This document shows positions 49,664 to 50,935 of a stretch of DNA of 64,000 nucleotides, piece after piece. A program made the position numbers and the translations under genes. Position 1 is the first letter of the stretch; the number at the start of each line of letters is the position of its first letter. The stretch lies in the IMG/VR virus record IMGVR_UViG_2880372215_000004. One strand, 5' to 3'. The notes beneath the pieces were generated by a model. It saw nothing but the letters and a program-made list of their open reading frames with translations. It did not search any database and was not told the origin of the DNA. The stretch comes from a virus (lineage: Duplodnaviria; Heunggongvirae; Uroviricota; Caudoviricetes).

Positions 49664-49946
49664 TGATGACAAAAAATTAGCGCAAGAGGACAAAAAATCA
49701 CCTTGCGCTAATGCTCTGTCTCAGGTCACTAATCACATCTAACTCATTGATTAATTGTGACTCTAAATGTAGTGTTTTGTCGCGTTTTGCAGTCTATCAT
49801 TTAATCAATTGTATAAATAACATAATGATTTTTAATGTGTTTTTGTGATTTTATCCTCCTTCTGACATGGAAGTTGTTCGTTCAAAAATCTTATTAAATA
49901 TCAAGTTGTTAAATCTGGTAAGTCATTATTGGTCAAAATAAAATCA
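49664..49946. other. Fossil lambda-type attP region (P arm with sib/tI hairpin, core region, P' arm)
   Basis: Collinear with lambda attP from memory. Hairpin TTAGCGCAAG...CTTGCGCTAA at 49677-49711. Arm-type-like CAGGTCACTAAT. P' arm GGTAAGTCATTATTGGTCAAAATAAAATCATTAT, followed directly by the int remnant. Confidence 0.7.
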
Positions 49947-50935
49947 TTATCCGATTTCAATTTTGTCCCACTCCCGCCCGCGACTGTCCCTATAATGCGC
50001 CGCCATTGAATCAGATTTATGTCCAAGAAGACGTTGTGCAAACTTGTAGCCAATCTGGTTCCGATATAGCCTCGCGGACAGACTACGTAGTTCATGAAAT
50101 GTCGGTGGGTCTCCATCAAACGAGATCCCGGATGCATTTCGCGCCTTTGTTAAATACCGTGATACTGTGGCTGGAGAAAGTGGTTCGTGATAGGTTGATG
50201 CGATTATTGTTTCACTGCTGCTGGCCTCCCTGCATTTCTGTAGTGTATCAACCAGTGAGATGTCGAGTGCGTCAATGGTTAGAGCCAGCGGAATGGCAAT
50301 TTTGGCTCCTGTTTTACTCTGTCCAATGTGAAGATGACCATCGTTTATGTCTGACCACTTCATTCTGCACAAATCGCCCACTCTCTGCCCTGTAACGACA
50401 GCTAAATCCATTGACAGCCTCAGCCAGATGGGGAGGTGCTCAGCAGCATGGTAAATAGCGACATACTCATTAGCTGTCAGCCTTGAGCGCCTTACTTCTG
50501 ACTTTGCTGCACGGGTTGTTGTTACTGGATTCGTTGCCACATGCCCCTCGGCTATTGCCCCTCGAAAAACGTCAACAAGGGTTGACCTGATTACTCTTGC
50601 GGAAACCGCTTTACCTTCTGCGACGTAGGTGTTTAGCATTGCTGCCACCTCTTTCGTTGATATGTCAGTGAGCGGTTTGTCCGGCAATTTTCTTCGAATT
50701 GCCCTGATTTTGCTGGCGTAGTCGAGTAATGTTTTCGGCTTGCTCCCCCTCTAGCTGAGGATTGTTTCATATCGATCAAGCCACGTATGAAGAGTGATTG
50801 AGTCAGTGCCTTTAACCCTGTCCAGCAATGATTCGTGCCCACTTTCGCTGAAAAGCTCAATGTTGGTGTGAATGCTTCTGAAATTGCTACTCTTCTGTCT
50901 CTTCCCAGCCCGAACTCTTTTTTCGTCCTCGGGTC
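49947..50935 (-). pseudogene. Lambda-type integrase remnant (5'-truncated, one frameshift, one TAG)
   Basis: The 246-aa ORF is collinear with the lambda Int C-terminus (..GQRVGDLCRMKWSDI...HELRSLSARLY...LLGHKSDSMAAHYRDSRGREWDKIEIG). Upstream, LHTWLDRYETILS*RGSKPKTLLDYASKIRAIRRKLPD has TAG at 50751-50753. DPRTKKEFGLGRDRRVAISEA is in another frame. The first ~27 codons are missing. Confidence 0.85.

Follow-up and report, generated by a model that had tools for sequence, protein, structure and literature searches.

The DNA analyzed here, a 64,000-nucleotide stretch of a tailed phage (Caudoviricetes; IMG/VR virus record IMGVR_UViG_2880372215_000004; "the window" throughout), carries between the effector genes nleA and nleH1-2 what we read, with considerable confidence, as the fossil integration module of a lambdoid phage: a sib/tI hairpin, a complete phage attachment site (attP) and the remains of an integrase gene (int). 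The region around this fossil is 100% identical to many Escherichia coli O157:H7 chromosomes. The RefSeq annotation of FDAARGOS_293 gives the order of genes as tail fiber, a frameshifted DUF1076 (nleG-family) gene, nleA on the minus strand, a tyrosine recombinase pseudogene, a tail-fiber fragment, nleH1-2, nleF, an IS256-family fragment and the insertion sequence ISEc8. These genes make up the exchangeable effector locus that belongs to the ompW prophage (Sakai Sp9 type), a type of locus described by Nakamura et al. 2021 (PMC8112680). The recombinase pseudogene, at window positions 49947-50941, is labelled "frameshifted; internal stop; missing N-terminus" by PGAP, and the damaged int had thus already been flagged by automatic annotation.

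Sensitive BLAST searches of phage records matched window 49667-50947 in one piece to the sib-attP-int region of HK022 (X51962.1 188-1468; 83.5% identity, E=0), in which sib is annotated at 190-239, attP at 243-469 and int at 463-1536, and likewise in one piece to lambda 27528-28814 (68.5%, E 1e-117); mEp235 and phage Gally match the same stretch at 83.5-84.4%. A three-way alignment with lambda and HK022 showed collinear homology across the P arm, the core position and the P' arm, as an earlier note on this DNA had proposed. Coordinates of the arm sites (Table 1) were transferred from the lambda annotation through the alignment with lambda and HK022; for H2, X1/X2 and F, position was the only guide. 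Judged by this alignment, the arm-type Int sites P1, P2 and P'1-P'3 and the putative IHF sites all lie at conserved positions; P2 differs from lambda and HK022 at 2-3 bases and is identical in sequence to the P2 of the attR of UTAK-13, a strain discussed below. Because the P and P' arms are contiguous in the window, with the core between them, the site is an unrecombined attP. The hairpin that precedes it was likewise recovered where the earlier note had placed it: its minus-strand RNA has a folding energy of -29.8 kcal/mol (z = -5.6), with the UUUUUU expected of tI next to it, and it lies 391 nt upstream of the nleA start codon and on the same strand as nleA. A consensus terminator scan did not flag this hairpin, though its RNA fold is strong.

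In the alignment the core region reads CCTCCTTCTGACATGGAAGTTG in the window, CAGCTTTTTTATACTAAGTTGG in lambda and CATCCTTTAGGTGAATAAGTTG in HK022. HK022, Gally and the integrated Stx1a phage Stx1a_NIID112183 have the HK022 core (CCTTTAGGTGAATAA, overlap AGGTGAA) in common, and the window differs from it; its core, CCTTCTGACATGGAA, is not the 15-bp lambda core (GCTTTTTTATACTAA, with attB between ybhC and ybhB) either. The best intact relatives in complete E. coli genomes, counting those with homology that begins precisely at the core, are prophages beside a DUF1175 gene; in UTAK-13 the 3' end of yfaT is directly followed by an intact int (356 aa) and xis, with the junction AACTTATGACATGGAAGTTGT. 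The unoccupied yfaT site of ATCC 8739 reads CAACAACTTATGACATGGAAGGACACC, and the sequence TGACATGGAAG is common to the window core, to this yfaT attB and to the UTAK-13 attL and attR; the overlap TGACATG is identical in the window attP, in attB and in attL. Prophages that target yfaT are on record (Bobay et al. 2013, PMC3603311); of 5426 genomes, 5198 have its attB uninterrupted and about 180 have it split. The fossil core is a third type, carried by a module of the HK022 family whose target is the 3' end of yfaT. The label "lambda-type" used in the earlier note therefore holds for the general architecture of the site; the closest family is that of HK022, and the core aims elsewhere. As a separate observation, the UTAK-13 prophage at yfaT has an int that shares 96.6% identity with HK022 int along with the HK022-type specificity residues, yet the att overlap of this prophage is TGACATG and not AGGTGAA; from these sequences it looks as if a changed overlap had by itself redirected an HK022-type Int to yfaT.

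The integrated relatives also tie the fossil to nleA. At its right end the yfaT prophage of UTAK-13 has an NleG gene, a transposase fragment, nleA on the minus strand, about 570 bp of further sequence and a 3' fragment of yfaT, which gives the overall order yfaT-attL-int-xis ... nleG-nleA-sib-P arm-core-yfaT'; E2863 has the same arrangement. From the nleA start through sib, P1, H1 and P2 to CTCCTTCTGACATGGAAG, UTAK-13 aligns with window 49280-49873 with few mismatches, and over the P-arm side (49664-49873) the UTAK-13 attR is 92.9% identical to the window. Past GGAAG, UTAK-13 enters yfaT (GACACCCGATGG...) and the window enters the P' arm. Since the window has P and P' together, and a prophage at yfaT parts them elsewhere, the window site is a genuine unrecombined POP', of which the UTAK-13 attR and attL represent the split counterpart, in agreement with what the earlier note had deduced from the contiguity of the arms. 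In BP-4795 and JLK-2012 the order tail fiber, nleG-like gene, nleA, sib and P1 recurs up to a break at the equivalent of window position ~49758, where the sequence passes into espV-dinI-attR; this stump indicates that the nleA-sib linkage is old and was truncated independently. The order nleG then nleA is found again in UTAK-13, E2863 and JLK-2012. Taken together, these arrangements show that the attP fossil belongs to the nleG-nleA cargo and came in with nleA, a connection that the earlier note had also drawn.

The int relic aligns to nt 69-1074 of HK022 int. By this nucleotide alignment 23 codons have been lost from the 5' end, and four indels (-1, -1, -2, +2) lie in the 107 nt next to the truncation (50841-50947); farther on, a TAG replaces GAG on the minus strand. 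The remaining 897 nt up to the stop codon are free of indels and in frame, and the TAA stop (49947-49949) lies within P'3, with the 3' end of int against the P' arm as in lambda. The earlier note was thus right that the gene is dead and that it carries a TAG, and is to be amended on the number of codons lost (given as ~27) and on the frameshift, described as one. The in-frame part is 87-88% identical in protein sequence to the Int of HK022, Gally and UTAK-13 and 70% to lambda Int, and all six catalytic residues (R212, K235, H308, R311, H333 and Y342) are kept. Pfam recovered Phage_integrase and SAM_1 and no arm-binding domain, and the relic offers no uninterrupted open reading frame that includes this N-terminal domain. 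Third codon positions hold 62% of the differences between the relic and functional ints, indicating that most of the divergence predates inactivation; the nonsynonymous:synonymous codon ratio of 0.63 for relic versus functional ints does not set the relic apart from functional pairs, which give 0.30-0.75. We infer that the fossil is now inert, its integrase being interrupted and lacking the arm-binding domain. The copy in the dog isolate Z1323PEC0013 has an extra 21-bp deletion in int' (window equivalent 50391-50411) and a 1-bp deletion in attP at 49884, private changes of the kind expected for neutral decay. Roughly 470 genomes carry the fossil, and in the part of them inspected every copy is contiguous; a megablast search of O157 genomes for a second HK022-like int detected none, the query giving a single place. 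It may be added that 50841-50947, the part of the arm-binding domain that survives, is much more damaged than the rest, being 71% identical to HK022 with its four indels, versus 87% and none; among the intact ints of HK022, lambda, UTAK-13 and Gally, by contrast, this N-terminal stretch hardly varies.

Table 1. Features of the window referred to in the text, in window coordinates
Feature	Position	Strand	Remarks
sib/tI hairpin	49677-49711	-	near-identical to lambda and HK022 sib; exact pattern match
P arm	49717-49857	+	P1, H1, P2, then Xis/Fis/H2 region by position
P1 (CAGGTCACTAAT)	about 49723-49733, within 49717-49736		conserved with lambda and HK022
IHF H1 consensus match	49740-49752	-	in P arm
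P2	about 49752-49763, within 49749-49768		recognizable in alignment
Core region CCTTC-TGACATG-GAAGTTG	49858-49876	+	15-bp core equivalent 49858-49872
Inferred 7-bp overlap TGACATG	49863-49869		in register with lambda
P' arm	49877-49950	+	IHF H' consensus 49899-49911 (+), then P'1-P'3
P'1 AAGTCATTAT	49920-49929		conserved
P'2 TGGTCAAAAT	49930-49939		conserved
P'3 AAAATCATTAT	49940-49950		conserved
HK022-family int relic	49947-50947	-	codons 1-23 missing; TAG at 50751-50753
Last 72 nt of tail-fiber assembly gene (tfa), terminator hairpin (51022-51046) and spacer	50935-51074	+	
PGAP "tail fiber C-terminal domain" fragment, 72 nt	50935-51006		leads to nleH1-2 and nleF
3' end and terminator of intact tail-fiber gene	46863-47001	+	left copy of bracketing repeat
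Second fossil, lambda-type attR	53341-53587	+	cut at 53588 by ISEc8
Second sib copy	53356-53390		exact pattern match; followed by second P arm, then core
Core of second fossil, GGCTTTTTATACTAA, lambda-type	53537-53551		14/15 bases of lambda core
B' flank of E. coli ybhC/ybhB attB	53552-53587		reads TTTGAGCGAAAC...AAAAAGTTGTTTTT
nleG-family pseudogene	47047-47621	+	cargo linked to attP fossil
nleA	47961-49286	-	cargo linked to attP fossil
nleH1-2	51113-52024	+	cargo of next phage-end module
nleF	52090-52659	+	cargo of next phage-end module
IntR-type integrase, 411 aa	1-1236	-	left end of the window's prophage; Pfam Arm-DNA-bind_2 and Phage_integrase
Excisionase xis	1238-1477	-	beside IntR-type integrase; Pfam DUF1233
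ISEc8	53588-56029		flanks non-matching: GTTTTTCG left, CTGATGTC right

To the right, the relic meets the 3' end of a tail-fiber gene. The 139 nt at window 50935-51074 repeat 46863-47001 (direct repeats D2 and D5, 93% and 92% identical), such that the nleG'-nleA-sib-attP-int' segment is bracketed by two copies of a tail-fiber 3' end. The int and tail-fiber homologies overlap ambiguously over 50935-50947. The edge, set by the earlier note at 50935, is a true junction with the tail-fiber fragment and looks like an illegitimate join at an imperfect microhomology.

A second att fossil lies after nleF, 2.4 kb to the right of the first, and was brought out by a repeat search that paired window 49662-49803 with 53341-53482 at 77% identity. 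Here both the core, with 14 of 15 lambda bases, and the ybhB-side flank agree with the specificity of lambda; in 5414 of 5426 E. coli genomes the flank matches the ybhC-ybhB intergenic region, the attB of lambda. In the dog isolate Z1323PEC0013, whose copy is free of ISEc8, the flank runs for ~75 bp to the ybhB terminator (72/87 identical, 8-bp gap, E 2e-22). The second fossil is thus a lambda-type attR (POB') within the prophage, the scar expected from aberrant excision rightward of a prophage at the lambda attB. An exact 40-nt degenerate pattern of the flank, used to seek its source species, gave no match in 185,579 species genomes, and an anchored gapped pattern hit loci of Escherichia, Shigella and Citrobacter alone, all of them with the spacer at full length and none with the 8-bp deletion; the flank is Escherichia-like and not Citrobacter-like. 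Its identity to E. coli is 83%. Nakamura et al. (PMC8112680) give a comparable 81-87% for attB sequences that derive from yecE, ykgJ/ecpE and ompW in the same loci, and left their route of capture unexplained. The 21-bp attB-in-PP_1 sequence of the same authors is absent from the window. The left of two IS256-family fragments directly adjoins the second sib copy at 53340/53341.

The prophage around the locus is a composite. At its left end the window has a full-length IntR homologue with an adjacent excisionase, 98.7% identical in nucleotide sequence over 6 kb to the K-12 Rac intR/xisR region, with the attL outside the window; this end matches the left end of Sakai Sp10 at 100% identity. Compared with Sakai, the window forms a mosaic of three parts, Sp10 (Rac-site), the effector locus of the Sp9/ompW prophage and an Sp11/Sp12-type junction: collinearity with Sp10 extends to ~39.5 kb, ~44.0-56.0 kb is nearly identical to the ompW-prophage effector locus (one mismatch within 44.0-55.7 kb), and right of ISEc8 the window continues as the Sp11/Sp12-type junction of strain 611. 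Collinearity of the whole window with the ompW prophage of FDAARGOS_293 was considered and rejected, as it holds only for ~44000-56029. The effector locus of TR01 and FDAARGOS_293 is part of the ompW prophage, which has a different, ompW-type Int, and in strain 8368 it sits in a prophage adjoining ynfA. The live integrase that partners the fossil therefore differs among O157 strains, and the statement of the earlier note that one prophage holds two integration modules, with a Rac-type int at its left, is true of the window, the partner in standard O157 genomes being ompW-type. The Rac-type partner reflects recombination between prophages; recombination and inversion between the ompW and ydfJ prophage clusters have been noted (Nakamura et al., PMC8112680).

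The two flanks of ISEc8 in the window do not match, whereas in FDAARGOS_293 and in strain 611 the element is bordered on both sides by 8-bp duplications that match each other and equal one of the window flanks; the window ISEc8 is thus a recombinant of two copies and marks a rearrangement break point. Three further observations may be added. The two IS256-family transposase fragments (52672-53340 and 56030-56884) are in inverted orientation and 86-90% complementary. A 5'-truncated tyrosine recombinase fragment of Sp12 type lies beside a dinI-like gene right of ISEc8 at ~57320-57871, coordinates inferred from the annotation of strain 611. Lastly, just outside the window equivalent in FDAARGOS_293, a ykgJ-family gene fragment stands beside ompW at the left boundary of the prophage, as in standard O157 genomes, and recalls the ykgJ/ecpE-derived attB sequences reported in these prophages.

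The most probable account of these arrangements, in which we place high though not complete confidence, is that the segment is the fossil integration module (sib/tI, a complete attP and an int both mutated and 5'-truncated) of a lambdoid phage from the HK022 family. This phage would have had nleG and nleA at the distal end of its b region and the 3' end of yfaT as its integration site. The free donor phage would have had the order tail fiber, nleG, nleA (leftward), sib, attP, int and xis. An illegitimate join would then have linked codon 23/24 of int with the last 72 nt of the tail-fiber gene of a second lambdoid genome, which would have carried nleH1-2 and nleF past its own tail fiber, and a homologous exchange somewhere in the shared late genes could have completed the fusion. 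The hybrid would never have used its yfaT-type attP, with another integrase at work (ompW-type in most O157 genomes, Rac-type in the window), and P and P' would have stayed joined because this attP went unused for integration. The anatomy of the segment, its homologies, the cognate attB, attL and attR and the junction are all shown by the sequences themselves.

Several points weigh against this account. We infer the order of events from a single sequence, in which it cannot be read directly, and the microhomology at the junction is imperfect. An intact donor phage with nleG/nleA beside such an attP, for which the earlier note had called, did not come to light: those prophages seen at yfaT are remnants of 15-17 kb that lack structural genes, and the phage collection gave only the BP-4795 and JLK-2012 stumps. 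Complete E. coli genomes contained no int above about 88% identity to the fossil, and the int and P' arm of the yfaT prophages, which are HK022-like, are only 85.5% and 76.7% identical to it, so that the exact donor lineage is unsampled; the fossil P' arm is likewise 76.7% identical to that of HK022. The overall prophage mosaic of the window is matched by none of the complete genomes inspected. Finally, all recognizable protein-binding sites of the attP look intact.

An alternative that is compatible with this history, and which we consider rather unlikely, is that the sib/tI hairpin has been kept as a working terminator shielding nleA from leftward read-through. The strong hairpin and its U tract on the nleA strand would suit such a role, as would the retention of nleA-sib-P1 in several unrelated prophage contexts (O157, UTAK-13/E2863, BP-4795 and JLK-2012) and the position of the break in BP-4795 and JLK-2012, only ~45 nt past the hairpin. 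However, retention may be plain physical linkage to nleA, and the simple terminator scan passed over the hairpin. Present function, of this or any other kind, found no evidence in our analysis.

The intact sites and overlap raise a further alternative, namely that the attP is a live landing pad for a yfaT-type phage or for Int supplied in trans (attP x attP or attP x yfaT attB), with a prophage within a prophage or a chromosomal rearrangement as the outcome. A contiguous yfaT attB in 5198 of 5426 genomes would provide partners, and functional attB sites are known in the same type of effector locus (PMC8112680). Against this, the O157 genomes inspected yielded no cognate int, all copies inspected are contiguous, the dog-isolate copy is decaying, and none of the three attB-in-prophage sites of Nakamura et al. 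lies at the fossil; we regard a live site as quite improbable. The notion of an attP with strict lambda or HK022 specificity, suggested by arms and sib homologous to both, has practically no chance of being correct given the alignment of its core (CCTTCTGACATGGAA versus GCTTTTTTATACTAA and CCTTTAGGTGAATAA) and a cognate attB at yfaT, not at ybhC/ybhB.

Returning to the fusion of two phage genomes, the two att fossils at the ends of the nleA and nleF cargo indicate that the effector locus is a stack of phage right ends. A broader version of this idea, which we offer tentatively as a possibility, is a layered record in which each phage right end is closed by its own att fossil: a yfaT-type POP' after nleG-nleA, a lambda-type POB' with host flank from the ybhB side after nleH-nleF, and then, to the right, the yecE-, ykgJ- and ompW-like pieces of Nakamura et al. 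On that model int::tail-fiber joins and excision of the kind seen in lambda bio phages, and not only insertion sequence events, would have been the builders of the locus, and the attB-in-prophage sites would be descendants of attR/attL fossils, some of them perhaps still usable by incoming phages.

No description of the attP fossil, of its yfaT specificity or of the lambda-type attR relic was found in the literature that could be searched, from which most subscription journals are missing, the first papers on the O157 genome and its effector repertoire among them. Fossil att/int modules and the mosaic evolution of lambdoid phages are both familiar, and the finding is a well-resolved instance of them that leaves the understanding of the integrase mechanism unchanged. 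Its interest lies in a readable history for a main effector locus of enterohemorrhagic E. coli outside the locus of enterocyte effacement, in which nleA would have arrived with an HK022-family phage targeting yfaT, nleH and nleF with a phage once resident at the lambda attB, and the two would have been fused end to end. Moreover, the sequence of the hybrid attR with its host flank is direct evidence of one way in which att sequences from the chromosome enter prophages, a question left open in Nakamura et al. 2021.

Compared with known systems, the fossil most resembles the HK022 module (X51962.1), with which it shares gene order and orientation, a near-identical sib, conserved arm-type sites and 83.5% identity over 1281 nt; its Int is 87% identical to HK022 Int over residues 60-356 and has the HK022-type D99, P282 and R319. 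It departs from HK022 in its overlap (TGACATG versus AGGTGAA) and its target, yfaT, in residues 283/287 (A/R versus K/K), and in an int that is truncated, interrupted and without xis. With lambda it shares the architecture of sib, P1, P2, core and P'1-3 and an int 3' end beside the P' arm, but identity is only 68.5% at the nucleotide and 70% at the amino acid level, and core and attB differ.

The UTAK-13/E2863 yfaT remnants have the same nleG-nleA-sib-P arm-core order, overlap and cargo as the fossil, but are integrated, with attL and attR 15-17 kb apart and int and xis intact; their int (protein WP_000533670.1) is 96.6% identical to that of HK022, and 85.5% identical to the fossil by BLAST over P' arm and int and 88.3% over codons 60-357. 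The stump in the Stx1 phage BP-4795 and in JLK-2012 matches the nleA upstream region, sib and P1 (94% and 91%), but is cut in P2 and continues into espV-dinI-attR without core, P' arm or int.

Lambda bio-type transducing genomes, in which P arm, core and B' are followed by host flank from the bio side, are the product of aberrant excision to the right of attR. The second fossil has the same succession of P arm, core and B' with ~75 bp of bio-side host flank, but this flank is tiny and lies in the middle of an effector locus, not beside early genes. The attB-in-prophage sites (PMC8112680) resemble both fossils in being att-related sequences among nleA, nleH, nleF, espM and nleG. Those sites, however, are attB-like targets shown to receive phages, whereas the two fossils described here, unmentioned there and without sign of use, are an attP and a hybrid attR.

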